This document shows, one piece after another, positions 3,474 to 59,521 of a stretch of 64,000 bases of DNA; the first letter of the stretch is position 1, and each line of letters opens with the position of its first letter. The translations under genes were made by a program, and so were the position numbers. Origin of the DNA: an uncultured virus (IMG/VR IMGVR_UViG_3300009503_000024) (Duplodnaviria; Heunggongvirae; Uroviricota; Caudoviricetes); IMG/VR virus record IMGVR_UViG_3300009503_000024; one strand, given 5' to 3'. A model generated the notes under the pieces. It was not told the origin of the DNA and did not search any database. It worked only from the letters and a program-made list of their open reading frames with translations.

Positions 3474-3845
3474 TTATTTTATATCAATAATTTCTTTTTC
3501 TTCAATTTCTTCTATTGTTTCATTATTTTTATTAGTCTTCTTAATAATTATATTTTTAAATTTATTATTTTTATATCTAAAAAATAAGTTAGCTAATTTT
3601 TTTAATTTTTCTAATGGATATTTAGTCATAGAAACAATATTTTCGCTATTTACTTCATATTTAATAACTTCTAATATTTCAATGTCCTTCCCTGAATCCA
3701 TAGTAATTACAAGTTTTAATGCATCGTCACCATCAACTTTTTGTTTATATAATACCATAGATTCAACTTTATTTAAATCTAAATAAAAAATTTTATTATT
3801 ACTATTATATCTTGCTATCATTTTTTTCCACCTTCCCATATACAA
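3474..3845 (-). CDS. Hypothetical protein
   Basis: ORF coupled to ligase stop; likely start at MIARYN. Confidence 0.6.
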   Translation of the reverse strand: MYMGRWKKMIARYNSNNKIFYLDLNKVESMVLYKQKVDGDDALKLVITMDSGKDIEILEVIKYEVNSENIVSMTKYPLEKLKKLANLFFRYKNNKFKNIIIKKTNKNNETIEEIEEKEIIDIK

Positions 3846-6547: not shown

Positions 6548-7207
6548 TTAATTTATTCTTTCAAGATTTCTTTTAAAATATTTTTTTATATTAACTCCTT
6601 TAATTAGTAAATCATTAACATCTTTACAACCTGGATAATTTATTTTTATTTTAAAAATTTCTATTGTATCTTTCAAATGTTTATTTACTTTTAATAAATT
6701 ATCTCCTGCTTCATCACCATCACACACAAGATATATTCTATCAAAATATCTATATATTATTTCTTGCTGTATATCAGACATTTTATTACCAATTACAGCA
6801 ATAGCATTTTTTAATCCGGCTTGATGTAAACTCATAGTATCTATTTGCCCTTCTGTTATAAAAACTTTTCTATTATAATACTTATCTAATACTCTATTTA
6901 AATTAAAAAACATTCTACTTTTTTCATATATATATTTAAAATTATGGGAACCAACATATTTCATATGACCATTATTTTCTATTGATCTACAAAAAAATGC
7001 TACTATTCTATTCCTTAAATCATAAAAAGGAATAGTAATAGAATTTCTTACTTTTGGAGTATTAAAAATTTCTTCATTTTTTATAAAACCAAGACCAAAA
7101 GTTTTTATTGTATTTAAATTTAACCCTCTATTTTTTAAATAATCCATACTTTCTTTAGTATGGTTTAATACCAAAAAATCTTGAATTTTTTGATACTCTT
7201 TTATCAT
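6548..7207 (-). CDS. dnaG: DnaG-type primase catalytic core/TOPRIM, no zinc-binding domain
   Basis: YLKNRGL, FGLGF, ITIPFYD, KY, ITEGQIDTMS, CDGDEAG, KDVND. Confidence 0.88.
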   Translation of the reverse strand: MIKEYQKIQDFLVLNHTKESMDYLKNRGLNLNTIKTFGLGFIKNEEIFNTPKVRNSITIPFYDLRNRIVAFFCRSIENNGHMKYVGSHNFKYIYEKSRMFFNLNRVLDKYYNRKVFITEGQIDTMSLHQAGLKNAIAVIGNKMSDIQQEIIYRYFDRIYLVCDGDEAGDNLLKVNKHLKDTIEIFKIKINYPGCKDVNDLLIKGVNIKKYFKRNLERIN

Positions 7208-8448: not shown

Positions 8449-9543
8449 TTAAATTCCCTTCTTTCCTTGCATAATTTTTTTCAATAAATCACTATCAAAT
8501 TTTATTTCGGGATAAGCAAGTTTTAATACAGGAATATTTATTTTATTATCCTCCATTAATTTTAAAACTTGTTCTATTGTTTCACTATCAATATTTAATT
8601 TTTTTACTAATTCATCTTTTAAATCAGATGATTTTATTTTACCTCTTTCTATAATTTCTTCAATTTTCTTTTCTATATCAGCTGGCCATGGTTTGTTGGT
8701 CTCAACACCAATACCTCTATCATCAATAAAAGCAATAGATGAATAAGGCTTTATATTTGTTATTTCATCATAAGGTATATTATATTTATCTAAATAATCT
8801 TTTATCATTTTATATGCTTTTTTATCATAACTAATTCTAGCACTAAAAATAATTATTGAATAACCCTTTTCTTTTAATCTACGTATTATTTCAACATTCT
8901 CTTTTATAGGTTCACCAATTATATCATATCTTCCTTCGTGTCTTGCTATTGTTCCATCTAAATCAATAGCAATTTCTTTTTTTCTATTACTTACAACATT
9001 ATTACATTTTTGACAAGATTCATTTTTAATTAATGTTCCATCAGTATCAGAATGAGCTTCACAATCCATCCCTTCTTCGTATTTTACAACTCTATTTCTA
9101 CCCCAATCTTTAGCACAATACAAAGCCTTATCCGCTTCTTTAAAAATATCATCTATTTTTTTATTTTTATCATATTCTGTATAACCTATAGAAACAGTTA
9201 TATTACCTTCAATGTTAGGAATTTTTATTTTACTTATTTCTTCCTTAACCATATTCAAATAATTTTCAACATTATCTTTTTCAGGTATTAAAATAACAAA
9301 CTCTTCTCCACCCCATCTATATGTTAGTAAATTTTTATCTAAATATTTTGCTATTGTTTTTAAAACCTCATCCCCAACATCATGCCCATATGTATCATTT
9401 ATCTTTTTAAAATGGTCTATATCTATTACCCCAAAATATGCTGGTTTTACTTTTTTAACAGTTTCATCAAAAGCATTCCTATTCCATAAACCCGTTAAAT
9501 TGTCTTTATAAGCTAATTTTTTTAATTTATCTACATTAGTCAT
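8449..9543 (-). CDS. GGDEF diguanylate cyclase fused to HAD-superfamily domain
   Basis: DNLTGLWNR, DIDHFKKINDTYGHDVGD, RWGGEEF, TVSIG, ADKALYCAK..GRN; then IAIDLDGTI, IIFSAR, KP, FIDDR. Confidence 0.93.
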   Translation of the reverse strand: MTNVDKLKKLAYKDNLTGLWNRNAFDETVKKVKPAYFGVIDIDHFKKINDTYGHDVGDEVLKTIAKYLDKNLLTYRWGGEEFVILIPEKDNVENYLNMVKEEISKIKIPNIEGNITVSIGYTEYDKNKKIDDIFKEADKALYCAKDWGRNRVVKYEEGMDCEAHSDTDGTLIKNESCQKCNNVVSNRKKEIAIDLDGTIARHEGRYDIIGEPIKENVEIIRRLKEKGYSIIIFSARISYDKKAYKMIKDYLDKYNIPYDEITNIKPYSSIAFIDDRGIGVETNKPWPADIEKKIEEIIERGKIKSSDLKDELVKKLNIDSETIEQVLKLMEDNKINIPVLKLAYPEIKFDSDLLKKIMQGKKGI

Positions 9544-12359: not shown

Positions 12360-13080
12360 ATACTAAAGATTTTATTTTTTTAATTATACGTATTTTTTCT
12401 AAAAAAATATATGTTGACGAAGTTTTTAATAATAAACTTATTGCTTTATTAGATAATCCTAATAAAAATAAAGCAAGTATTATCAATTGATTTTTTGTCA
12501 TATATTTAAAATAATCTTCTATATTAAAATTTTTAATTTTTTGCTTTATAACATAATCTTCATACTGTTCTAAACTTATAATTTTTTCTTTAATATAATT
12601 TTCATACTGTTCTAAACTTTCATTTTCATCTTTATTTTTAATATATAAATTATATTCATTTTTTTCAATAAATTTGTTATCAATATATGGTATATCTCTA
12701 TAATTAAACTCAAAATAATCTCTTTTTTTAACTATAAAAAATTTATCAAAAACTTTATCTCTTTCTTCATTTCTTTTAAAATAAAAAATATTTTTTCCAA
12801 TTTTTAATAAATATCTTTTTCTTAATCTATAAAACTCACAATTATATCCAGACAAACATTTTTTAACTTCTAAATCTTGTTTTATTTCATTATTTTTAAA
12901 TTTTTTAATATTAATAGTACCTATAAAATTTACATAATATTGTTTATTAAAATCTTCTATAAATTTTTCAGTTACAAAATATTCATCATAAATTGTATAC
13001 TTAATTTTTTTTGATTTTAACATTAAAATACAGCAACGCAAATTATATTTATTGTTAGAAGAATAAACGTATCCAATCAT
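12334..13080 (-). CDS. Protein with C-terminal sigma region 4/LuxR-like HTH
   Basis: MTKNQLIILALFLLGLSNKAISLLLKTSSTYIFLEKIRIIKKIK. Confidence 0.5.
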   Translation of the reverse strand: MIGYVYSSNNKYNLRCCILMLKSKKIKYTIYDEYFVTEKFIEDFNKQYYVNFIGTINIKKFKNNEIKQDLEVKKCLSGYNCEFYRLRKRYLLKIGKNIFYFKRNEERDKVFDKFFIVKKRDYFEFNYRDIPYIDNKFIEKNEYNLYIKNKDENESLEQYENYIKEKIISLEQYEDYVIKQKIKNFNIEDYFKYMTKNQLIILALFLLGLSNKAISLLLKTSSTYIFLEKIRIIKKIKSLVFGGKNGIK

Positions 13081-13085
13081 TCTAT

Positions 13086-13319
13086 TTATTTTTTATACTT
13101 TAGCTTTTGAAGTTGTAAATATGTCATAGCTACAACACCTTCTTTATAACGTTGAAAAATAGGACGTAAAAACGGAGGTAAAGAAAACCACATTATTATG
13201 TCATTTTTAACTTGCAAATAATAAGAATCAAAAGACATAATATTTTTAAAATGTTTCTTCCAAATTTCTTTTGCTTTCTTATATACTTTCTTTTCATCTA
13301 CATATTGCGCCATAAACAA
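13086..13319 (-). CDS. Hypothetical protein
   Basis: First gene behind a sigma70-type promoter. Confidence 0.6.
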   Translation of the reverse strand: MFMAQYVDEKKVYKKAKEIWKKHFKNIMSFDSYYLQVKNDIIMWFSLPPFLRPIFQRYKEGVVAMTYLQLQKLKYKK

Positions 13320-13344
13320 ACCTCTAATACTTTAAATTTATTTA

Positions 13345-13373
13345 ATTATATTACAAAATTATATTTTTGTAAA
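13345..13373 (-). promoter_or_regulatory. Host sigma70-type promoter TTTACA-N17-TATAAT (class 1)
   Basis: Near-consensus -35/-10 with 17-nt spacer, intergenic. Confidence 0.75.
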
Positions 13374-13380
13374 CTAAAAA

Positions 13381-14049
13381 TTATTCTATATTTAATCTTT
13401 TTTGCCAAGGAACTTTTTTTATGTATTTAACAAAATCTGTTTCCTGAATAGATTTCTTAAATTCAGACATTTTTATTTTACAATTTTTTTCATTTAACAA
13501 TTTATTATCTAATGCAACCTGAAATGGAAAATCGTCGCGCTGTATTTCTTTTATAGATAGCGTAAGACCTAAATTTCCTAAAATAAGCTTATTATTATTA
13601 TCTATTATTAATTTATCTATTGCTGCTCTTAATTCTTCTTTAACATCTGTTAATGCTTCTATTTTTGCTCCTATCGCAATATAAGTATTATATAATTTAT
13701 CTGGAGTTTTAGTTTCTAATACATAATCTTTAACTAATGCTTCTTGAAATTCTTTACAATTAACTCTATTTTTACAATTCATACATTGCCCCGAAATAAC
13801 CCGTGTTTTTGGAATTTCAAATTTATTCTTTATAGTCATTGTTTTTATATAATCGATATCCACAAATTCTATTTCTAAAATTGCCTCACTATATTTTTCT
13901 AATATTTTATTTACTTCAATTTGTTGCCATATATAAATTTTATAAAAATTCCCAGACAAATCTTTACATTTTATTTTATTTTTTTCAATTTCAACTTCAA
14001 CTTTTTCAACATCACTATCATAATCAATACAATATTTTTTAAAAATCAT
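13381..14049 (-). CDS. Hypothetical protein with Cas4/PD-(D/E)XK-like Cys cluster
   Basis: GQCMNCKNRVNC; nuclease active site not recognised. Confidence 0.4.
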   Translation of the reverse strand: MIFKKYCIDYDSDVEKVEVEIEKNKIKCKDLSGNFYKIYIWQQIEVNKILEKYSEAILEIEFVDIDYIKTMTIKNKFEIPKTRVISGQCMNCKNRVNCKEFQEALVKDYVLETKTPDKLYNTYIAIGAKIEALTDVKEELRAAIDKLIIDNNNKLILGNLGLTLSIKEIQRDDFPFQVALDNKLLNEKNCKIKMSEFKKSIQETDFVKYIKKVPWQKRLNIE

Positions 14050-23010: not shown

Positions 23011-23646
23011 TTAATAACCTCTTTTTTGCCTGTCATAATTCTCTTTATTTTTAGCAACATATAATTTATAAAAAAATTCTTTTGTAATCTTATATTGTTT
23101 ACATATATTAAAAAAATATTTCATAATAATTTCTATTATAATTTTAACTTTTTCTTTATCAAAATCATAATCACTATAAGTTTTCCAATATTTATATGGT
23201 AAATAGTCTAAAATTTGACCCCATTTTATTGATATTTCTCCAATTATTTTTTTATAATCTATTATTTTCATATCTTCATTCCAATAAAAATCTAAATTAT
23301 TAAAATCGTTTTCTCTATAACCTAAATATAAAATCATATTCATTAAAAAATGCCAAGCATCAATTAATTCAAATTGTAATTCTATTAAATCTTCATTATT
23401 TTTTATATTATAAGTTCTTTGGTCAAACTCCCAAATTTCAGCAATAAAACAATTAAAATGATATAATGATTCTTTTACCCTTTCTTTATTAGGATAATCT
23501 GGAGTAATAGAACCTCTCTTTTCATTATAAAACTTTTGTAATTCATATTGCATTTTTAGCATAATCCCCAATGCATTTTCATCATACTTTACTTCATTAG
23601 TTTTGTTTAACAAAAAAAAACATTTATTCTCTGGATTTTTACTCAT
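23011..23646 (-). CDS. All-alpha dimeric dUTPase/dCTPase (T4 gp56-like family)
   Basis: ELQFELIDAWHFLMNM, PYKYWK, YVAKNKENYDRQKRGY. Confidence 0.88.
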   Translation of the reverse strand: MSKNPENKCFFLLNKTNEVKYDENALGIMLKMQYELQKFYNEKRGSITPDYPNKERVKESLYHFNCFIAEIWEFDQRTYNIKNNEDLIELQFELIDAWHFLMNMILYLGYRENDFNNLDFYWNEDMKIIDYKKIIGEISIKWGQILDYLPYKYWKTYSDYDFDKEKVKIIIEIIMKYFFNICKQYKITKEFFYKLYVAKNKENYDRQKRGY

Positions 23647-26150: not shown

Positions 26151-26184
26151 AAGAGATAGATAGATTTTATTCTATCTATCTCTT
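26151..26184 (-). terminator. Intrinsic terminator-like hairpin
   Basis: aagagatagataga-6 nt-tctatctatctctt, right after gene ending 26190. Confidence 0.7.
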
Positions 26185-26189
26185 CAGCT

Positions 26190-26738
26190 TTATTCTTTAT
26201 AACCAATTTTACCATATAAATCTTTTATATGGTATCTAACACAATTCTTATAAATGGTATTAGGTTCGATACCATTTATTTTTGTTTTAGCAAGAACCAT
26301 TGCATCTGGATAAAGATTGCATTTAACACCATCGACACTAAATGCAACAGATTTACTTCTAAGTTTTGCATCTCCTATGTTTTTCCCGATCCAATCCCTC
26401 ATTTTTGCATAAAGCTTTTGCTCTTCAACTTTTTCGACTTTTTCAGCTTTTTCAACCTTTTCATTTTTAGTTTCTTTTTGAGTCATAACACTTTCCTCCT
26501 TTTCTCCAATAGTTTCTTTTAAAACTATTGTATTTGGAATTTTTACCATAACAATTTCTCCTGTATTTTTATCATTTACTAACCCAAAAACTTCAATTAC
26601 CCCATTCACCTCCTTTTTTTTATCAATTTTTACAACCGTACCCTTTGGACTCATATATGTCTTACCAACTACAACATCAACACCTAATACTTCTCCTTCT
26701 TTCAAATCTTTTCTTAAGCTTTCTAAATCTTCCGTCAT
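26190..26738 (-). CDS. Hypothetical protein
   Basis: Strong AAGGAGG RBS; EKV repeat linker. Confidence 0.8.
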   Translation of the reverse strand: MTEDLESLRKDLKEGEVLGVDVVVGKTYMSPKGTVVKIDKKKEVNGVIEVFGLVNDKNTGEIVMVKIPNTIVLKETIGEKEESVMTQKETKNEKVEKAEKVEKVEEQKLYAKMRDWIGKNIGDAKLRSKSVAFSVDGVKCNLYPDAMVLAKTKINGIEPNTIYKNCVRYHIKDLYGKIGYKE

Positions 26739-26761: not shown

Positions 26762-27868
26762 TTATTTATTCAAAAACTTTATTTCGCTATAATTTCTACT
26801 TATCTCTTCAACTACTTCAAAAGCGCGCTTTATAGCTTGATCCATATTATAATATTTATAATCACCAAGTCTACCACAAAATATAATATTTGGAAAATAG
26901 CATTTAGCAAAATCCAAATAAATACTATATAAATCAATATTTTTCTTAGTTAAAACTGGATAACATTTAATATATTTGTTTAATTTTGGCACCTCACAAA
27001 TTTTTACTTTATTTTTTATTTTTAAATTATATAACTTAGCATAATCAACATATCTAGTATAAATAGGATGCAATGGTAAATTCAATATCTTAAAATTATA
27101 TTCTTCACTATTTATTCTATCAAATTTTAAACCTATATAATCTAAATCACCCAAAATATTATTAAAAAAAGTATCAATACTACCAGTATAAATTATCATA
27201 TCTCTCTTATATTTTTTAAAATAATCATAAAAAGTAAACTTATTATTATATATTTTTATACCTTTTGCCATATTTTTAAAAATATTACAATAACCATATT
27301 TGGGTAATCCTTGATATTTATCTTGAAAATAATTTTTATTATTAAATGTATGAAAAGCGCTAACTCTATTAAAAATTATAGGTTTTAATTCTTCAAAATA
27401 ATTCCCCCATTGCTTTTCACTATATTTTCTATAAACTTCTTCATATATTTTTATTCCTAATTTAAAGGTTTTTTTATCATTTGTTAATTCATTTAAAGAA
27501 ACTAATTTATTAATACCATATTTTTTTAATAAATAATTTGATATTTTTTTACCATAAAAATCATCAATATTTTTAAGATTAAGTGGCAAATAAAAATAAC
27601 CACTATAAGTTTTAATAGCAATTTTGTGTTTAATTTCTATAAATTCACCAAATTTTCGTATATAATCCCAAATTTCTTTATTATTTGTATGAAACAAATG
27701 AGGCCCATAAAGATGAACATAAGTCTTTATTTCACTATCATATTTATCAGCACAATTACCACCTATTATATCTCTCTCTTCAAACATAACTAAATCTTTA
27801 AAATTTAATCTATTTAATCTTTCAGCTATAGTTAAACCTGTTAAACCTGCACCAACAATAATAATCAT
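26762..27868 (-). CDS. glf: UDP-galactopyranose mutase
   Basis: GAGLTG FAD motif, IGGNC.D, HLYGPHLFHT, YSEKQWG, YF.DKYQGLP..GY, YTG.ID, GRLGDYKYYNMDQAI. Confidence 0.95.
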   Translation of the reverse strand: MIIIVGAGLTGLTIAERLNRLNFKDLVMFEERDIIGGNCADKYDSEIKTYVHLYGPHLFHTNNKEIWDYIRKFGEFIEIKHKIAIKTYSGYFYLPLNLKNIDDFYGKKISNYLLKKYGINKLVSLNELTNDKKTFKLGIKIYEEVYRKYSEKQWGNYFEELKPIIFNRVSAFHTFNNKNYFQDKYQGLPKYGYCNIFKNMAKGIKIYNNKFTFYDYFKKYKRDMIIYTGSIDTFFNNILGDLDYIGLKFDRINSEEYNFKILNLPLHPIYTRYVDYAKLYNLKIKNKVKICEVPKLNKYIKCYPVLTKKNIDLYSIYLDFAKCYFPNIIFCGRLGDYKYYNMDQAIKRAFEVVEEISRNYSEIKFLNK

Positions 27869-27869
27869 A

Positions 27870-28928
27870 TTAAAACTCCTTTATATAAGATTTATAATAA
27901 TTTATATCTTTTAATTTTTTATAATCTTCACTTTCTTTTATTCTTTTTAAAATTACATTATACATATTAATTTTCTTCTTTATATCTTCATTACTATCAA
28001 TTAACAAATATTCTTTTATAATTTTAAAAAAATCTTTATATACATTAAAAGCTTTTTCCCAATTACATTTTTTCATAATTAAAGGTATACAATCCAACGC
28101 CAAAGCTTCAAAAAACCTTATAGATGAAAACTCATTAACATCATAAGATGGAATAATTAAAGTAAATTTAGCTATTTTAAGTCTTTCATAATATTTATTA
28201 TAATTAATATAATTATTTTCTTTTGTATATTTATTTTTCAAATATATCTCTTTATTAGTTAAATTTATAGATTTTATAAAACTATCTATATATTTTCTTT
28301 CTTTTGTTAAAACTGTATAACCCAAAACAAAATCTATTATTTTATTCAAATTATTATTAACATTATAAAAATAACCATATTCAATAAAAGGGAAATATTT
28401 TGTATTAATTTCATTAGAACTATAAAAAAAATAATTTTGTATATGCGAATACAAATTTTTATATTGTAATTCTTGTGGGTCATAAATAATTTGTTTTATA
28501 TTTTTATCTTTAAATTTTTCTAAAACGCGCAAAGTAATAAATATTCTGCGATAAAATTCCTTAACAATATTTATATTATTTTTTAAAATAAAATCATTTT
28601 CTTTTAAAGACTTCAAATATAACTTTTTTATTTCTTGTTCATTTCCCCTATGTAATTTTTCACTTAATGGCGTATATAATATCACTAATTCATCAAAATT
28701 ATACTCATTTAATTTACTATCAATTTTTTTATAAAAAAGATCCCATGCCTCTAATTTTTCTTTAAATTCTAAAGGAGTAATATTAACATTATTTATATAT
28801 TTATATTGTTTTTCATTATCAATAAGAATTTTATATTTAATATCACCTAATTCTAATATTTTTAATGCATTATTTACTCTTAATCTTTCTCTTAAATTAT
28901 TTACTAAAAAACTTATCAATAGCCTCAT
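27870..28928 (-). CDS. GT-B fold glycosyltransferase-like protein
   Basis: C-terminal AKFTLIIPSYD..EFSSIRFFEALALDCIPL donor-binding pattern; soluble. Confidence 0.7.
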   Translation of the reverse strand: MRLLISFLVNNLRERLRVNNALKILELGDIKYKILIDNEKQYKYINNVNITPLEFKEKLEAWDLFYKKIDSKLNEYNFDELVILYTPLSEKLHRGNEQEIKKLYLKSLKENDFILKNNINIVKEFYRRIFITLRVLEKFKDKNIKQIIYDPQELQYKNLYSHIQNYFFYSSNEINTKYFPFIEYGYFYNVNNNLNKIIDFVLGYTVLTKERKYIDSFIKSINLTNKEIYLKNKYTKENNYINYNKYYERLKIAKFTLIIPSYDVNEFSSIRFFEALALDCIPLIMKKCNWEKAFNVYKDFFKIIKEYLLIDSNEDIKKKINMYNVILKRIKESEDYKKLKDINYYKSYIKEF

Positions 28929-29394
28929 CTATATTTCTCCCTTTATTATATATTAATATTTTATTCATAATTTTTGATTTTTTATAAAATTCTGAAAACA
29001 TTTTTCTTTCAACAATCAAATTTTGTTTATAATATAAACCATCTCTTGCTTTTATTCTCTTTTGAGCAACTCTAGCATCTAAATCTATTAATACAAGCAT
29101 TACTAAATTAATATTTTCACCAAAAATTACTCTTTCAACATAATTCAAATCTAATTCTATATTTCTTAAAGTTCTTGAATAAACAACTTCAGATATATGA
29201 TACCTATCAAAAATCATATTTTTATCTTTATTTAATTCAAAATTTTGTTTTAACACTGATAATTTATCTATAACATTTAATTTTTGAAATTCATTCATAT
29301 CAATTCTTGGAGCTAATACATATTTACCTTTTTCTAAAACTTTATTTATAAACGTAGTTTTACCAGCTCCATCTATACCTTCTACAATAATCAT
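28897..29394 (-). CDS. Thymidylate-kinase-like dNMP kinase
   Basis: IIVEGIDGAGKTT, IFDRYHISEVVY, KRIKARD. Confidence 0.9.
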   Translation of the reverse strand: MIIVEGIDGAGKTTFINKVLEKGKYVLAPRIDMNEFQKLNVIDKLSVLKQNFELNKDKNMIFDRYHISEVVYSRTLRNIELDLNYVERVIFGENINLVMLVLIDLDARVAQKRIKARDGLYYKQNLIVERKMFSEFYKKSKIMNKILIYNKGRNIDEAIDKFFSK

Positions 29395-29942
29395 AAATCA
29401 ATCCTCTTTTTAAATTCTTTTATTTTATTAAAAAAATCATCCATTAAATCTTTTCTATATCCATTTCTAACAATATACCCTGGATGATATAAAAAACAAA
29501 GTTTAACTTTTCCATCAATATAATTATTTTGCATTATATCTAATATAGTATTTTTTGCTATAGAACCAAGACAAATTATAGCTTCCAAATTTTTCATATT
29601 TTGTATCTCTCTTACCAAAAATTTATTTTTACAATTTTCAATATATTTTTTATTAACATTTTTAACACAACATTTTATAACATTAACTAAATAAAAATCA
29701 TTTATGGTTAACCCTAACAAATTAACCATATTATCTAAAATTACTTCACCTCTTTTTTTATCTTCTTTTTTAGCAAAAAAATTAAATGGCACAATATCTT
29801 CGTTTTTTATTGTATTATCAACTGGAGCTGGACTTTGCGCTACTATTAAAACCTTAGCATTTATATTACCAATATCGTCCGCTTTCTTTTCATTAATACC
29901 ACAAATATCACATCTAAAAATTTCTTCTTTCCACTTACTCAT
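29391..29942 (-). CDS. Uracil-DNA glycosylase-like protein (family 4-like, Fe-S)
   Basis: CDIC, VAQSP, YLVNVIKC, ENC, IICLG..A, LYHPGY. Confidence 0.82.
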   Translation of the reverse strand: MSKWKEEIFRCDICGINEKKADDIGNINAKVLIVAQSPAPVDNTIKNEDIVPFNFFAKKEDKKRGEVILDNMVNLLGLTINDFYLVNVIKCCVKNVNKKYIENCKNKFLVREIQNMKNLEAIICLGSIAKNTILDIMQNNYIDGKVKLCFLYHPGYIVRNGYRKDLMDDFFNKIKEFKKRIDL

Positions 29943-30931
29943 TTAATCAACCTCTTAAATTCTTCAAAATTTTTAAATTCATTCTTGTGATGTTTATGAT
30001 AAAAAACACTATTTTTTAAATAATATATCTCACAATTAAAATAAATAAATTCAAACATAGAAGTATGTATTACGTCATCTGGATCACACATATAAAATAT
30101 AACAGGTCTATATTTTAAAATATTATAATATGATTGTCTATCATTTGAAACCTTTACATTTGGTATTTTAGTATCTATAGCTACATTATTAGGAGCTGTA
30201 TATAATATTGTATAATTTCTGAACCTTTTACTCTTTTCTAAAACTCTATATACTTCTTTAACTTTATAATATTTATCTGATTGTCTAAATGGCACAAAAA
30301 TTATATTTTTAAACTTATTAACCGCAGGAACTACATCTATTAAATCAAAACTAAAAATATTATTATCTATTACAGACTTCGGAAAAAGTAAATGTTGATT
30401 TAAAGTGCTAACAACCATTTTATATTTTTTATGCAATTCCATATCTAATTTCCGAAAACCATCTAAAAAATATAATTTTGTTTTTATAGTATCAGTTACG
30501 ATAGCCCAATAAATTACATCTATATTTTTAAAACCTATAGTTCCTATAATGTTAGGTGTAAATACAATTAAATCAAATCTTTTCTTTGTAAGTATATCTT
30601 TAACAAATTTTATCCATTTATGATTTTTCCTTGTTTCATAAGCATTTGTTGCATAGCAATCAGTTTCTATAATATTAACTTTAACTTTACTTTTATTTAA
30701 TTCTCTTTCTAAAAATTCTTTATTTTTATTATTTTTAGGTATAGTTAAATAAACTTCCCCCGATTTCATTAATTTTATTTTTGTTATAACTGCATTAAGA
30801 TTTCCATCAGCGGATAAATTATATACATTACTACCATATTCGCGCATTGAAACCATAGGTATTAATAAAACTCTCTTACCATCCATTTCTTTTTCTAGAT
30901 AAGAATATAAATTTAATTTATAATCACTCAT
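29939..30931 (-). CDS. Putative second glycosyltransferase-like protein
   Basis: ~330 aa alternating beta/alpha pattern, IFVPFRQSD and HTSMFEFIY..C segments in GT-B-like positions; mainly context-based. Confidence 0.4.
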   Translation of the reverse strand: MSDYKLNLYSYLEKEMDGKRVLLIPMVSMREYGSNVYNLSADGNLNAVITKIKLMKSGEVYLTIPKNNKNKEFLERELNKSKVKVNIIETDCYATNAYETRKNHKWIKFVKDILTKKRFDLIVFTPNIIGTIGFKNIDVIYWAIVTDTIKTKLYFLDGFRKLDMELHKKYKMVVSTLNQHLLFPKSVIDNNIFSFDLIDVVPAVNKFKNIIFVPFRQSDKYYKVKEVYRVLEKSKRFRNYTILYTAPNNVAIDTKIPNVKVSNDRQSYYNILKYRPVIFYMCDPDDVIHTSMFEFIYFNCEIYYLKNSVFYHKHHKNEFKNFEEFKRLIK

Positions 30932-31383
30932 TTTATTAACTCCAATTCTATTTTTGCTTCTTTTAATAAAGAAGTACCTAATTCATCAGAATATTTTTCA
31001 ATATAAAAAACTTTTTTGATTCCAGCGTTTATTATAGCTTTAGCGCAAAAGCTACAAGGGCTATAATATGTATATAAATCGGCTCCTTCGGTTGCAATAC
31101 CATGATATGCTGCTTGAACTATAGCATTTAATTCTGCGTGAGCCCCTACACAATATTCTAAATTAAAACCACTTTTATCTTTATTACGTATACAATAACC
31201 TATTTCCAAACAATTTTTTACACCCCTTGGGGCTCCATTATAACCAGTAGAAATTATATGTCCATTTTTAACTAATATAGCACTAACTTTACGACGCAAA
31301 CACGTACTTCTTTTCGCTATTACCTTCATTACTTCTATAAACATTTCTTGTTTAGAAATTCTATTCTCCATATTTAAACTCAA
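30928..31383 (-). CDS. dCMP deaminase family protein
   Basis: RSTCLRRKV, TGYNG, HAELNAI, SPCSFC. Confidence 0.93.
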   Translation of the reverse strand: MSLNMENRISKQEMFIEVMKVIAKRSTCLRRKVSAILVKNGHIISTGYNGAPRGVKNCLEIGYCIRNKDKSGFNLEYCVGAHAELNAIVQAAYHGIATEGADLYTYYSPCSFCAKAIINAGIKKVFYIEKYSDELGTSLLKEAKIELELIK

Positions 31384-32452
31384 CTTTCTTTTCCATTAAA
31401 ATATTTTTTGCTATCTGATTACACATATTACAATGTATACTACATCTGTTTTCACAATCATAATTAACTAATCCATCTGATTTAAAAAGTTCTCGTTCAA
31501 ACATTTTTAAATCTTCATATTTTATTTGTTTTAAAATATTAGGGACAAATTTATTTTCTTTATTATTACCTATATTTTCTAAATGAAACCATAAATCTGC
31601 AAAAGAATAATCGTTTTCTATCCCATCAATAATATCCATATAAATTTTAGCAACATTAACTATAAAATTAGTACTTGCTGTTCTACCAGTAATTTTAAAT
31701 CTATCATAACCAATATCTGTATAATAATGTATCCATTGTGGTAATATAAATCTAGTTTTAAGCCATTCACCAAAATCTGTATTCCTAGCTTGTATACAAT
31801 CTCTCATTGGATAATTATTAAATAATTTACTTTCTTCAACTGTTTTAATATTTTGATGATTTAAATAACACATTATTCTGTTTGGACATTGAAACAAACA
31901 AAATTCATTTACCATTAATTCTAATTCTAAATTAAGAAAAGTTTTTCTAAATTTTATTAAAAAATCAAAATCTCTATTTTTCATTAAACTCATACATACT
32001 TTTTTTATCTTAGGATAACGTTGTAATAATAACTGCATCTTATAAATAGATTCTATATGATAAATAGTTGAAAGTTCTATATCTATATCTAAATCTGAAT
32101 TTTGTAAAATTTCGAGTAAAAATGTTGAAGAAACTGTTATTTTTTTTATTTTATAAATTTTCAAAAATTCTATAAAATTATCCTTATCAAATTTAGTTTT
32201 ATCTATATTCAACCCATTCATAGTAAAATTTAATATTATATTATTATCTTCCATTAGTTGTTTTATATTATTAAAATGTTCTAAAGATTTTTCTGGAAGC
32301 CTATATAATGGTCTTGCAGTATATTCTGCAAAAGTAGAAGAAACATTCCCAAACATTTCAACAATTTTTGATTTATTATAATACTTATTAAATTCTATCA
32401 CTTTTTCTATAAGATCTTTTTCAAAATTATTACCTATCATTAATTTTATCAT
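31361..32452 (-). CDS. Peptidase U32-family Fe-S protein (probable O2-independent hydroxylase)
   Basis: ELSTIYHI, LELMVNEFCLFQCPNRIMC, further Cys, GYDRFKITGR. Confidence 0.82.
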   Translation of the reverse strand: MIKLMIGNNFEKDLIEKVIEFNKYYNKSKIVEMFGNVSSTFAEYTARPLYRLPEKSLEHFNNIKQLMEDNNIILNFTMNGLNIDKTKFDKDNFIEFLKIYKIKKITVSSTFLLEILQNSDLDIDIELSTIYHIESIYKMQLLLQRYPKIKKVCMSLMKNRDFDFLIKFRKTFLNLELELMVNEFCLFQCPNRIMCYLNHQNIKTVEESKLFNNYPMRDCIQARNTDFGEWLKTRFILPQWIHYYTDIGYDRFKITGRTASTNFIVNVAKIYMDIIDGIENDYSFADLWFHLENIGNNKENKFVPNILKQIKYEDLKMFERELFKSDGLVNYDCENRCSIHCNMCNQIAKNILMEKKVEFKYGE

Positions 32453-32931
32453 TTTATAAACTCCAATAAATTTTGATATATCTTTAAAATTAACAAATTA
32501 TTTTCAGCATTCATATCAATTGTTTGCATAATATTAAAAAATTTTTTTCTTTTAATTTTATCACTCCAAATAATATTTACAATGTTTCTTAATTCTTTAT
32601 TAAGTTCCCTATAAACTCTTAAATCATTTTTAATATTTTCTTTATTATAAAAAATTTGTTCAGAAAAATTTCTATATAAAAACATTACAGCTTTTTCAAA
32701 ATCTAAATTTTCCATCTTTTTTACTATTTCAATAGAATCAAATAACTTATGACATCCAAAACAATACCCTGTATTAGTTTCTTCATACAATCGAGCTGAA
32801 GGAGTTTTTTCTTCGTGAAAAGGACACAAAATATAACGTTTACTAATTTTAATATCATAGTATTTTATAACTTCAATTAAAGAAATCTTTTTTACATAAT
32901 CAATTAATAATTTATTAATCATTTTAAGCAA
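32449..32931 (-). CDS. Stand-alone CHC2 zinc-finger (DnaG N-terminal domain) protein
   Basis: LCPFHEEKTPS...YCFGC...DSIEIVKKMENLDFEKAV. Confidence 0.88.
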   Translation of the reverse strand: MLKMINKLLIDYVKKISLIEVIKYYDIKISKRYILCPFHEEKTPSARLYEETNTGYCFGCHKLFDSIEIVKKMENLDFEKAVMFLYRNFSEQIFYNKENIKNDLRVYRELNKELRNIVNIIWSDKIKRKKFFNIMQTIDMNAENNLLILKIYQNLLEFIK

Positions 32932-39719: not shown

Positions 39720-40805
39720 TCATTCCAATAAAAAATTTCTTAACTTTTCAGGAGTTATAAAATTAACCGCTGCATCATAACCTTTTTGAGCAGTTGTAAT
39801 TGCTGTAAAATCAAGAGCATTTACTTCATTTTCAATTTTCATATCATCTTCAGAAGGATACCAATCTAAAATTTCTATTGAAGGATAAATATCGGGGTTT
39901 AACTTATGCAAAAGTTTATAATCTTCTATTTCATCCCAAGCAAATTCTTCAAAAATATGCATTATAACAGTTTCTAATCTTCCTGCAATATCACCTATAT
40001 TATGTGTTAATATTTTTTGTGGTATAGTATTAGGTGATGTACCGACTAATATAATTTTTGTTGCACCATATTTTATAGCAAGTTCAACTGGATTATTTCT
40101 TCCTACACCACCATCAACTCCCAACCTTTTTAAACTTTTAAATTCAAAATCTTCTGCTTCAAAAATTATTGGTATTGCACTTGTCAATAATGCCATTTTA
40201 TCAGCAGGAAAACCTGGGTTTTCTTTACTATTTATTACAACCATTTCACCATTTATTATATCCGTTGTTGTTAAAACTATTTCTGTTTTTAAATCACCTA
40301 ATTTTATACCATCAAAATGTTTTACAACTAATTTTTTTAATCCATCTTTATTTAAAATACAATTACCTTTATTATCTTTAAAAATTTGACTTGCCATACC
40401 AAGCCAATCACCTAAATTTTTAAATTGCAACATACCAGAATAAATATCTGAATTTAATAATATATTATTCCATATATTTGCCGCTTCTTCTAAATTATCT
40501 TTATATTTTGCGATTAATAATGTATTAAGCCCACCAACAGAAGTACCACAAATCATATCAACATATTTTAATACACCAATTTTATATAACCAATAAACGA
40601 AGAAAAATTGCCGTCTTCCCAACGAACCTCCGCCAGGTAAAACTAACGCAAGTTTTTCTTTATTTTTAATTCTAAAATTTTTATATTCTTCTAAAATTTG
40701 TATAAAATCTGGTGATGGTATTTGTTCAATAAGTTTAAAAGGTTGCGGGCGTTTGTCTTTGCCCCACGAAAACCATAAAAAATTAGGCATGTTTAGCCAC
40801 CTCAT
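39720..40805 (-). CDS. Patatin-like phospholipase
   Basis: LVLPGGGSLG oxyanion loop, GTSVG nucleophile, SAIP..F, VDGG..NNP; likely start at 40790 (MPNF). Confidence 0.92.
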   Translation of the reverse strand: MRWLNMPNFLWFSWGKDKRPQPFKLIEQIPSPDFIQILEEYKNFRIKNKEKLALVLPGGGSLGRRQFFFVYWLYKIGVLKYVDMICGTSVGGLNTLLIAKYKDNLEEAANIWNNILLNSDIYSGMLQFKNLGDWLGMASQIFKDNKGNCILNKDGLKKLVVKHFDGIKLGDLKTEIVLTTTDIINGEMVVINSKENPGFPADKMALLTSAIPIIFEAEDFEFKSLKRLGVDGGVGRNNPVELAIKYGATKIILVGTSPNTIPQKILTHNIGDIAGRLETVIMHIFEEFAWDEIEDYKLLHKLNPDIYPSIEILDWYPSEDDMKIENEVNALDFTAITTAQKGYDAAVNFITPEKLRNFLLE

Positions 40806-58973: not shown

Positions 58974-59336
58974 CTAATCTTGTTCAATATCATAATTTCT
59001 TCGTATTTTCTTCTTAAATTTACCTTGTTCAAATCTTCTTTTAAACCCAGCATATTTGTTATAAAACGTATGTGATATATCAGTTCTTGGCGGAAATTGG
59101 AAATTAACCTTTTCACCAACTCTTTCATCAGAACCTTTTATTTCTTTTTGATATAATTGTTTTAATTCTTTATCAAATTTTTTACCTAAATATTTGTATA
59201 AATTAGGTAAATCTAATTTTTTATCAATTGCATACATAACATCCTCTTTAGTAAATTCATTAGCAAAATTTTTATATACATTTTTTATATCACTTACATT
59301 ATTCAATAAATCTTTTATTGTAAATTTATTTTTCAT
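58974..59336 (-). CDS. Hypothetical protein
   Basis: ATGA-coupled ORF. Confidence 0.6.
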   Translation of the reverse strand: MKNKFTIKDLLNNVSDIKNVYKNFANEFTKEDVMYAIDKKLDLPNLYKYLGKKFDKELKQLYQKEIKGSDERVGEKVNFQFPPRTDISHTFYNKYAGFKRRFEQGKFKKKIRRNYDIEQD

Positions 59337-59521
59337 TTTAAATCATCTCCTATTTCAAAAGTTATTCTATCTTTAAATTCTTCTTGTTTTCCATTATTCC
59401 ATTGTTTTACAGATCTAAAATAACCTACTATTCTACTATAAACTTCACATTCTGTTCCTTTTATATTTTCTAATTCTTTTTCTAATTCTGCAATTCTTTT
59501 TAATGTTTCATATTTATCCAT
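59333..59521 (-). CDS. Stand-alone NrdD C-terminal glycyl-radical domain mini-protein
   Basis: CEVYSRIVGYFRSVKQWNNGKQEEFKDR. Confidence 0.85.
   Translation of the reverse strand: MDKYETLKRIAELEKELENIKGTECEVYSRIVGYFRSVKQWNNGKQEEFKDRITFEIGDDLK

Follow-up and report, generated by a model that had tools for sequence, protein, structure and literature searches.

The closest described counterparts of the locus analyzed here are phage systems that place sugars on 5-hydroxycytosine in DNA, encoded by Escherichia phage RB69 (gp45-gp55), Acinetobacter phage DLP3 (gp76-gp83), and Rhizobium phage RL38J1 (gp214-216 together with gp84, a UDP-galactopyranose mutase, Glf) (Lee et al., NAR 2026; PMC13326640). 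According to that report, cytosine in RB69 and DLP3 is replaced by arabinosylated 5-hydroxycytosine, and the precursor 5-hydroxy-deoxycytidine monophosphate (5-hydroxy-dCMP) is made by a flavin-binding thymidylate-synthase homologue whose oxygen comes from O2, as traced by 18O2 labelling. RB69 gp48 alone yields 5-hydroxy-deoxycytidine in E. coli, and a D169N signature predicts the thymidylate-synthase homologues that make 5-hydroxy-dCMP (PMC13326640). The DNA of RL38J1 carries galactose (base-proximal) and then glucose on 5-hydroxycytosine, with UDP-galactofuranose from the phage Glf proposed as donor; whether the first sugar is added to the nucleotide or to DNA was left open by the authors (PMC13326640). 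Here we describe a run of seven genes in a 64,000-nt stretch of DNA from an uncultured virus (IMG/VR record IMGVR_UViG_3300009503_000024; the whole stretch is hereafter the window), which encodes a U32-family Fe-S protein, a dCMP deaminase, two glycosyltransferases, a uracil-DNA-glycosylase-like (UDG-like) protein, a nucleotide kinase, and Glf. Judged from the sequence, we give slightly better than even chances to the view that this cluster encodes a variant form of the phage glycosyl-5-hydroxycytosine systems for DNA hypermodification, with the U32 protein as the putative hydroxylase.

Homologues in the published clusters exist for three of the window genes, those encoding the U32 protein, the 330-aa transferase, and the thymidylate-kinase-like kinase. 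With RB69, DLP3, and RL38J1 the window shares a homologous candidate first transferase, a homologous kinase, an additional transferase of the GT-B type, a phage gene for sugar-nucleotide supply, and a location in the replication module; the supply gene is glf in RL38J1 too, and with RB69 the window shares the U32 homologue (gp50). In contrast to all three, the window yielded no 5-hydroxy-dCMP synthase of the thymidylate-synthase type, and the UDG-like gene and the GT47-like transferase are additional. In L007 and other T4-like loci, U32 is followed by the thymidylate-synthase homologue, the transferase, and the kinase, whereas in the window the deaminase occupies the slot of the synthase. The window phage has a DnaE-type polymerase and a genome unrelated to Straboviridae or Pootjesviridae. 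The glucosyl-hydroxymethylcytosine pathway of T4 (the gp42 hydroxymethylase, the gp1 kinase, the gp56 dCTPase, the cd deaminase, and the alpha/beta-glucosyltransferases) provides another parallel, in that a deoxynucleoside monophosphate (dNMP) is modified and then phosphorylated by a dedicated kinase, the canonical deoxynucleoside triphosphate (dNTP) is excluded, a dCMP deaminase balances the pools, and glycosylation comes last. However, the hydroxyl proposed here is borne by C5 itself instead of forming part of a hydroxymethyl group, and the modifying enzyme family, the transferases, and the sugar all differ.

A first-pass annotation of the window, made from the sequence alone, had proposed a new pathway leading to a galactofuranosyl-5-hydroxypyrimidine. 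Its core, a glycosylated 5-hydroxypyrimidine, gains support from the three genes homologous to the RB69, DLP3, and RL38J1 clusters, whereas the proposed hydroxylase route differs from that known in RB69 and DLP3 and the novelty of galactofuranose (Galf) no longer holds. The annotation knew of no described Galf-modified DNA base; since galactosyl-5-hydroxycytosine has been reported in RL38J1 with UDP-Galf proposed as donor (PMC13326640), this statement is out of date. The new element would instead be a U32-only, apparently O2-independent hydroxylation route, the idea of Galf-decorated DNA being already published. The statement that RB69-like relatives carry U32 and dNMP kinase genes was correct, as their U32 proteins are ~33% identical to that of the window and the kinase is homologous to the gene at the gp45 position. 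A full-text literature search returned no paper assigning DNA-precursor hydroxylation to a phage U32 protein (the HY126 study of He et al. lay beyond its reach), and a term search of Thomas et al. (2018; PMC6024577) gave no mention of U32 or peptidase. In the available text of Lee et al., the sole mention of RB69 gp50 is an entry in Table 1, as 'sugar or heterocycle reductase', and the discussion names two other pyrimidine hydroxylation routes, from tRNA biology, as unrelated to the synthase (PMC13326640).

The U32 protein was assigned by several comparisons. It matches PF01136, its sole Pfam family, with 37.1 bits (gathering cut-off 22.4) over residues 243-282 only, and phrog_5757 with E = 2e-51. 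The C-terminal Peptidase_U32_C domain (PF16325), which is present in TrhP, gave no hit; phmmer searches against PDB sequences yielded nothing meaningful, and the single NCBIfam hit for the window protein was a faint match to TrhP (E = 0.008). The AlphaFold2 model, with a predicted local distance difference test score (pLDDT) of 91.9, is a TIM barrel whose top Foldseek hit is 5d88, the U32 protein Mk0906 (E = 1e-6; target-normalised TM-score 0.72). Alignment of the phage U32 profile to E. coli TrhP/UbiU/UbiV/RlhA by hhalign reached 97.7% probability (E = 2.5e-12; 221 columns) and placed E178, C185, and C195 of the window protein opposite E162, C170, and C177 of TrhP, which are essential together with their equivalents in RlhA (Sakai et al., 2019; PMC6599085). 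Among 45 phage U32 homologues, the glutamate is retained in 38 and each of the two cysteines in all 45, and further conserved cysteines are C189 (43/45), C219 (45/45), and C153 (41/45). The matched family, the fold, and the retained Glu/Cys residues thus bear out the earlier identification of a U32-type protein.

In E. coli, TrhP and RlhA act in C5 hydroxylation of tRNA U34 and of C2501 in 23S rRNA, respectively. TrhP-dependent formation of 5-hydroxyuridine needs prephenate and does not need O2, and TrhO is the O2-dependent alternative (PMC6599085). The phage protein has the U32 TIM barrel and the conserved Glu/Cys residues in common with TrhP, RlhA, and UbiU/UbiV, and by analogy the expected chemistry would be O2-free hydroxylation of pyrimidine C5. 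It differs from TrhP and RlhA in that the similarity is remote, detected at the profile-profile level, the U32_C domain is absent, some phage members have an extra C-terminal cysteine cluster, and the substrate proposed here would be a free deoxynucleotide (or DNA) instead of RNA. From this analogy we infer that the phage U32 protein may be an O2-independent dNMP C5-hydroxylase. The first-pass annotation had made the same proposal; comparative genomics agrees with it for the window, whereas in RB69 and DLP3 the hydroxyl comes from the thymidylate-synthase homologue.

The distribution of U32 and its neighbors was surveyed in phage genomes. A tblastn search with the window U32 protein retrieved 222 phage records (~33% identity over ~97% of the length), whose ten commonest names are all T4-like phages of Enterobacterales. 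A profile built from 45 U32 homologues led to 59 viral loci. Within 10 kb of U32 in these loci (tblastn, E <= 1e-4), the neighbor most often found was the first transferase (25 loci), followed by the deaminase (17), the kinase (12), the UDG-like protein (11), Glf (3), and the 352-aa transferase (2); because these neighbors recur, the grouping in the window is not a chance one. Locus L021 has the order dUTPase_2-family protein, kinase, transferase, U32, GT47-like transferase, and DnaE, with the deaminase and Glf farther away.

No thymidylate-synthase or ThyX family member was found among the window ORFs (open reading frames) scanned with Pfam, and tblastn with RL38J1 gp216 against the window gave 0 hits at E <= 10; this query did pick up a homologue close to U32 in 18 other loci. 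The window represents 64 kb of a 97,853-nt source contig. A further 3.5 kb beyond the window start, recovered from 4 short metagenome contigs, encodes a GH108 endolysin and small ORFs, and a thymidylate synthase is not among them. Window positions 3474 to 62905 are collinear with genome G002 (99,665 nt; terminal repeats; CheckV 100%), in which 61 of the 95 window ORFs have matches in the same order, and the U32 protein of G002 is 59% identical to that of the window. G002 has no match to PF00303 or PF02511, and its first 35 kb, the counterpart of the contig part outside the window, encodes head genes, an intein-bearing ORF, and an NDP-sugar epimerase/dehydratase and, by Pfam, no recognisable oxygenase or other hydroxylase. 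Whole records could be searched for 50 of the 59 loci, and PF00303 was detected in 21 of them. Among the 18 records that are at least 90% complete it was present in 10 and absent from 8, and 6 of these 8 carry the phrog_3891 transferase; four of the six (G021, G022, G025, and G045) have neither ThyA nor ThyX. The transferase-bearing genomes without PF00303 are ~41-49 kb long, and their module genes are contiguous, L021 (above) being an example. In a quick U32 tree, records with and without the thymidylate-synthase homologue are interleaved (6 changes of the ThyA label), and the window pairs with G002 (SH-aLRT 100%).

Several observations relate U32 to oxygen supply. Acinetobacter phages account for 57 of the records with the first transferase, yet they are not among the ten commonest names (each with at least 3 records) of the 222 U32 records, and Rhizobium phage RL38J1 has no U32. 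The small subunit of the O2-dependent class I ribonucleotide reductase occurs in 7 of the 50 records, all of them T4-like with ThyA. The anaerobic reductase NrdD is matched in 10 of the 50; a further match, in L057, immediately adjoins Glf and U32. The window itself (59333-59521, minus strand, 62 aa) and G002 (68 aa; PF13597 match, positions 532-562) both encode the stand-alone glycyl-radical motif of NrdD, and the two ORFs are 63% identical; the 62-aa product, which hints at an anaerobic host, may serve the host enzyme as a 'spare part'. Public sequencing runs that contain the stretch are labelled hot springs metagenome, and one of them may be its source, while another holds 0.94 of its sequence words (shares below 0.2 were not counted). 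Taken together, these observations hint at an O2-free or back-up role of U32, the anaerobic host being a hint rather than a proof.

The 330-aa protein has no Pfam family, and its family profile found nothing among PDB sequences. It matches phrog_3891 at E = 3e-24, and tblastn linked it to 342 phage records, including RB69 ORF046 and the Acinetobacter records mentioned above; in phage Acj9 the matching gene adjoins one annotated as thymidylate synthase. The N-terminus aligns pairwise (E = 3e-6) with RL38J1 gp215, designated 'galactosyltransferase 1' (PMC13326640), through a common SMRxY...DGN motif, and gp215 lies between gp216 (synthase) and gp214 (kinase). An AlphaFold2 model based on a 22-member family alignment (pLDDT 91.6) shows a GT-B fold, and its top Foldseek hits are UDP-sugar glycosyltransferases, including a glycosyltransferase of phage HY126 and MshA (3c4q), a structure also listed for RB69 gp46:47 (PMC13326640). 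The modelled fold is therefore in line with the earlier label of putative glycosyltransferase. Fold similarity as a test of DNA versus glycan acceptors for the transferases was discarded, because the published DNA arabinosyltransferases likewise resemble generic GT-B enzymes. The kinase matches PF02223 (Thymidylate_kin; E = 5e-11) and phrog_761 (E = 4e-18) and contains the P-loop GIDGAGKTT. It is 33-36% identical to the transferase-adjacent kinase at the gp45 position of T4-like loci L007 and L015, and its match to RL38J1 gp214 is confined to the P-loop (E = 0.012).

Glf would supply a sugar donor, and the second transferase would attach a further sugar. Glf matches PF03275 at E = 2e-34 (119.5 bits; cut-off 26.3) together with PF13450 (NAD_binding_8), has an N-terminal GAGLTG motif, and aligns over residues 3-352 with the D. 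radiodurans mutase 3hdq (E = 5e-50), the best among solved mutases. This full-length alignment, with the GLF domain and the Rossmann motif, upholds its earlier identification as UDP-galactopyranose mutase. The 352-aa transferase has two matches below cut-off, Exostosin_GT47 (E = 7e-6) and Glyco_trans_1_2 (E = 3e-5), and nothing among PDB sequences; only 3 relatives were found in a search of 5.8 billion proteins, and homologues stand beside U32 in L021 and L028. The annotation had advised a survey for glf co-occurring with U32 in phages, and Glf lies near U32 in L021, L030, and L057; RL38J1 also carries a Glf homologue. Neither Glf nor the GT47-like transferase is encoded in G002, which has an NDP-sugar epimerase/dehydratase (L072, 13246-14319) instead of Glf, along with a distant relative of the first transferase. 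The sugar-related partners of U32 are thus the arabinose genes in RB69-type phages, Glf in the window, L021, L030, and L057, and the epimerase/dehydratase in G002. A role of U32 in sugar synthesis was set aside as the main reading because U32 recurs with these differing sugar genes. The gene neighborhoods suggest that U32 tracks base-modification genes rather than one sugar pathway, and the same variation of sugar genes points to a conserved core of U32, kinase, and first transferase surrounded by variable tailoring genes.

Further arrangements were seen around U32 and Glf. In a 138.9-kb viral contig, L001 (2341-9750) combines a core of deaminase, kinase, UDG-like protein, and U32 with a radical SAM/SPASM enzyme and an AdoMet decarboxylase, which suggests a different, non-sugar or mixed decoration; L001 also holds a distant relative of the first transferase. 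L030 (7575-16284) contains a DXD glycosyltransferase, kinase, first transferase, U32, a TET-associated-glycosyltransferase-like (TAGT-like) protein, and a dUTPase, with Glf farther on. L057 (4803-11119) contains GT2, NrdG, NrdD, a gene of no assigned family, Glf, DUF7695, and U32. Glf homologues occur in 88 phage records, of which 19 are from Aeromonas phages (T4-like among the matches listed) and 26 are named 'Bacteriophage sp.' (from human fecal samples among the matches listed), besides Rhizobium and Agrobacterium phages. In G002, an 833-aa ORF (L071, 16800-19301) is interrupted by an intein with an HNH endonuclease.

The deaminase matches PF00383 (dCMP_cyt_deam_1; E = 8e-22, 77.5 bits) and phrog_174 (E = 4e-45), and its translation contains both zinc motifs, HAE (HAELNA) and PCxxC (SPCSFC). 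The UDG-like protein matches PF03167 (E = 9e-15) and scores 51.8 bits against TIGR00758 (cut-off 125.3). Family-4 enzymes are distinguished by motif A GE(A/G)PG, motif B HPS, and four Fe-S cysteines. Aligned with T. maritima TM0511 (E = 1.5e-4), the window protein reads AQSPA where that enzyme has GEGPG, and HPG where it has HPS; four cysteines (Cys11, Cys14, Cys90, and Cys103) are present, and its relatives mostly have AQxPG. In L006 (3488-6655) a single 1056-aa frame encodes DnaE with a UDG-like domain fused at its C-terminal end, which links this domain to the replisome. In L002, the closest relative, a 408-aa ORF (12756-13982) joins the UDG-like protein through a Lys/Glu-rich linker to a homologue of the 182-aa protein of the window, the latter being 28% identical to the C-terminal half of the fusion; the 182-aa protein itself had no Pfam or PHROG hit and no usable ESM Atlas hit. 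The UDG-like protein is probably a replisome-linked hygiene factor, and the deaminase and UDG-like genes may both serve replication and nucleotide hygiene rather than the pathway. For the deaminase, the earlier identification as dCMP deaminase stands, whereas its assignment to a pathway step is less certain. A dUTPase_2-family gene immediately precedes the kinase/transferase/U32 module in L021 and L028, and one adjoins DnaE in L001 and L002. The window member had no tblastn match in 50,697 phage records and so could not be linked to T4-type dCTPases.

From these assignments the following pathway can be proposed. The U32 protein would introduce a hydroxyl at C5 of a deoxypyrimidine monophosphate (most likely dCMP) in an O2-independent and, by analogy to TrhP/RlhA, prephenate-dependent reaction. 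The thymidylate-kinase-like kinase would phosphorylate the modified nucleotide, which the phage DnaE polymerase would incorporate, while the dUTPase_2-family pyrophosphatase and the dCMP deaminase could drain the canonical pool and feed host dTMP synthesis. The RB69-type GT-B transferase would then place a first sugar on the 5-hydroxyl and the GT47-like transferase would add a second, with Glf converting host UDP-galactopyranose to UDP-galactofuranose as the donor for one of the two. The UDG-like protein would probably act in replication hygiene by removing uracil or deaminated 5-hydroxycytosine. More tentatively, and with somewhat less than even confidence, we suggest that this is the first U32-family enzyme acting on DNA precursors, as a prephenate-dependent, O2-independent C5-hydroxylase of dCMP (or dUMP), that it replaces the flavin- and O2-dependent synthase homologue in phages of anaerobic or hot, oxygen-poor habitats and backs it up in enterobacterial T4-like phages, and that the resulting 5-hydroxyl is decorated with Galf through Glf. 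That joint reading would amount to an aerobic/anaerobic duality like that of TrhO and TrhP. If U32 is the hydroxylase, 5-hydroxypyrimidine DNA could be made without oxygen, which would explain restriction- and CRISPR-resistant DNA in phages of anaerobes and of gut or hot-spring hosts, account for the U32 gene, so far without explanation, in RB69-type phages considered for therapy, and add deoxynucleotides to the RNA and quinone substrates of U32 chemistry. The variable cassettes on one core (Glf with the GT47-like transferase, the epimerase/dehydratase, and the radical-SAM or TAGT-like proteins) point to a glycodiversity of DNA beyond the three characterised cases.

A number of points weigh against the proposed U32-based pathway. 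The identities of the base and the sugar, like the succession of the steps, are deduced from sequence. The substrates of TrhP and RlhA are RNA polymers, and direct catalysis by either has not been demonstrated (PMC6599085), so the analogy is to a genetically defined function. The role of the first transferase (gp46:47 in RB69, gp79 in DLP3) was proposed only, and single transferases showed no activity on 5-hydroxycytosine DNA (PMC13326640); Glf falls below the cut-off of the NCBIfam equivalog TIGR00031 (248.2 versus 303.75 bits; E = 1e-73). About 39 Escherichia phage records have the transferase without U32 (176 versus 137). G018 and G019, which lack a ThyA match, have weak ThyX-like matches, and in 18 loci a thymidylate-synthase homologue lies within ~7 kb of U32, directly adjoining it in several, as would suit a helper. 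Finally, ~34 kb of the source contig is outside reach and could hold a thymidylate-synthase homologue, with G002 serving as a proxy only. The proximity of U32 and the synthase homologue, the contig part outside reach, the sufficiency of RB69 gp48 for 5-hydroxy-dC, and the reductase label of gp50 (PMC13326640) would all agree with an accessory U32, acting as a reductase or in a cofactor-related role, with the hydroxyl coming from an unrecognised enzyme or from a synthase homologue elsewhere in the genome. However, 8 of the 18 near-complete U32 records manage without PF00303 and 6 of them keep the transferase, the collinear G002 has neither ThyA nor ThyX and no dioxygenase or monooxygenase was found by Pfam in its part beyond the window, U32 persists across differing sugar pathways, and the phage proteins have kept the catalytic residues of the RNA hydroxylases; we therefore consider an accessory function rather unlikely. 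An RNA substrate is suggested by the fact that the characterised U32 enzymes acting on nucleic acids all modify RNA (PMC6599085) and by the faint NCBIfam match to TrhP, and U32 would then hydroxylate host or phage tRNA or rRNA independently of any DNA modification. The absent U32_C domain and the synteny with transferase, kinase, and thymidylate-synthase homologues, kept across phage families, make this explanation very improbable.

The modified base could also be uracil or thymine: the deaminase would deliver dUMP, U32 would form 5-hydroxy-dUMP, and after phosphorylation by the kinase the product would replace thymidine and be glycosylated. This alternative gains from the position of the deaminase, which adjoins U32 here and in several loci (kinase, deaminase, and U32 are contiguous in L006, L008, and L009), from the thymidylate-kinase-like nature of the kinase, from the failure to find a phage thymidylate synthase in the window or G002, from the UDG-like and dUTPase-family genes that accompany the module, and from the ability of U32 enzymes to hydroxylate both U and C, the TrhP substrate being uridine (PMC6599085). 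It is nevertheless unlikely in our judgment, since thymine replacement in a genome of ~22% G+C would mean glycosylating nearly 40% of its bases, and L021, where a deaminase and a ThyX-like gene accompany the module, looks equipped for normal dTMP synthesis. Cytosine is provisionally favored as the modified base, because it is the base modified in RB69, DLP3, and RL38J1, the three systems characterised so far that have members of this transferase and kinase family (PMC13326640), and L021 seems able to make dTMP. An acceptor other than DNA would mean that the transferases and Glf decorate a host surface glycan or a virion protein and that the other four genes are chance neighbors. Glf does occur in Streptococcus prophages and many other phages with no known DNA role, the 352-aa transferase weakly resembles GT47 polysaccharide enzymes and has few relatives, and G002 dispenses with both. 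In contrast, members of the 330-aa family turned up solely in phage replication modules, in the company of U32, thymidylate-synthase homologues, and kinase, and in 0 of 14 control genomes. Glf reappears close to U32 in three other loci, RL38J1 pairs Glf with galactosylated 5-hydroxycytosine (PMC13326640), and neither transmembrane segments in the seven proteins nor flippase or lipid-carrier genes among the scanned window ORFs were detected, as detailed below. Hence, a non-DNA target appears quite improbable, and the glycosyl-5-hydroxycytosine pathway with U32 as hydroxylase remains our preferred interpretation.

The features of the locus are collected in Table 1. As the first-pass annotation had described, the mechanical ORF list and Pfam agree on seven co-directional genes, neighbors overlapping by 4-32 nt with the sole exception of a 1-nt gap before Glf.

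Table 1. Features of the candidate DNA-modification locus and its surroundings; positions refer to the window.
Feature	Position	Strand	Basis
U32-family Fe-S protein, 363 aa; proposed O2-independent C5 hydroxylase of dCMP (or dUMP)	31361..32452	-	PF01136, phrog_5757, AlphaFold2/Foldseek, hhalign
dCMP deaminase, 151 aa	30928..31383	-	PF00383, phrog_174, zinc motifs
GT-B glycosyltransferase, 330 aa, of the RB69 gp46:47 / DLP3 gp79 / RL38J1 gp215 family; proposed base-proximal transferase	29939..30931	-	phrog_3891, tblastn, model
Family-4-like uracil-DNA-glycosylase superfamily protein, 183 aa, with deviant motif A	29391..29942	-	PF03167, TM0511 alignment
Thymidylate-kinase-like nucleotide kinase, 165 aa	28897..29394	-	PF02223, phrog_761, P-loop
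Second glycosyltransferase, GT47/GT-B-like, 352 aa	27870..28928	-	Sub-cut-off Exostosin_GT47 and Glyco_trans_1_2
UDP-galactopyranose mutase (Glf), 368 aa	26762..27868	-	PF03275, PF13450, TIGR00031, 3hdq alignment
182-aa protein, family unassigned; tied to the UDG-like gene via fusion in a relative	26190..26738	-	28% identity to part of the L002 fusion ORF
dUTPase_2-family all-alpha NTP pyrophosphatase; candidate canonical-dNTP excluder	23011..23646	-	PF08761, E 1.5e-9
14-bp perfect inverted repeat; possible operon end	26151..26184		Terminator scan; after gene 26190-26738

The window has ~22% G+C, and its minus strand carries nearly all long ORFs. By Pfam, its genes are those of a contractile-tailed phage, with baseplate J and sheath-initiator proteins, a DnaE-type polymerase, DnaB, RecA, SbcCD, and ligase. 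The seven genes (26762-32452) lie inside the replication block, as claimed earlier, being flanked upstream by DnaB, FEN, and the primase zinc-ribbon and downstream by the dUTPase_2-family protein and DnaE. No minus-strand terminator-like site was detected between 26190 and 37500 by the terminator scan. Transmembrane segments are not evident in the seven proteins (maximum 19-residue Kyte-Doolittle mean of 1.57), and no flippase, Gtr, or lipid-carrier genes were found among the window ORFs scanned with Pfam, which agrees with the annotation on these points. A blastn comparison of the cluster with phage genomes gave one 56-nt match only.

Three further features were noted in the window. The primase is split into a CHC2 zinc-ribbon protein (32449-32931, minus strand) and a Toprim/DnaG core (6548-7207, minus strand) with 25 kb between them. 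A GGDEF diguanylate-cyclase-type domain (E = 6e-35) is fused to a HAD phosphatase domain in the replication region (8449-9543, minus strand), and this fusion ORF is matched, in part only, by G002. A gene for a patatin-like phospholipase (39720-40805, minus strand) lies between the replication and tail modules.

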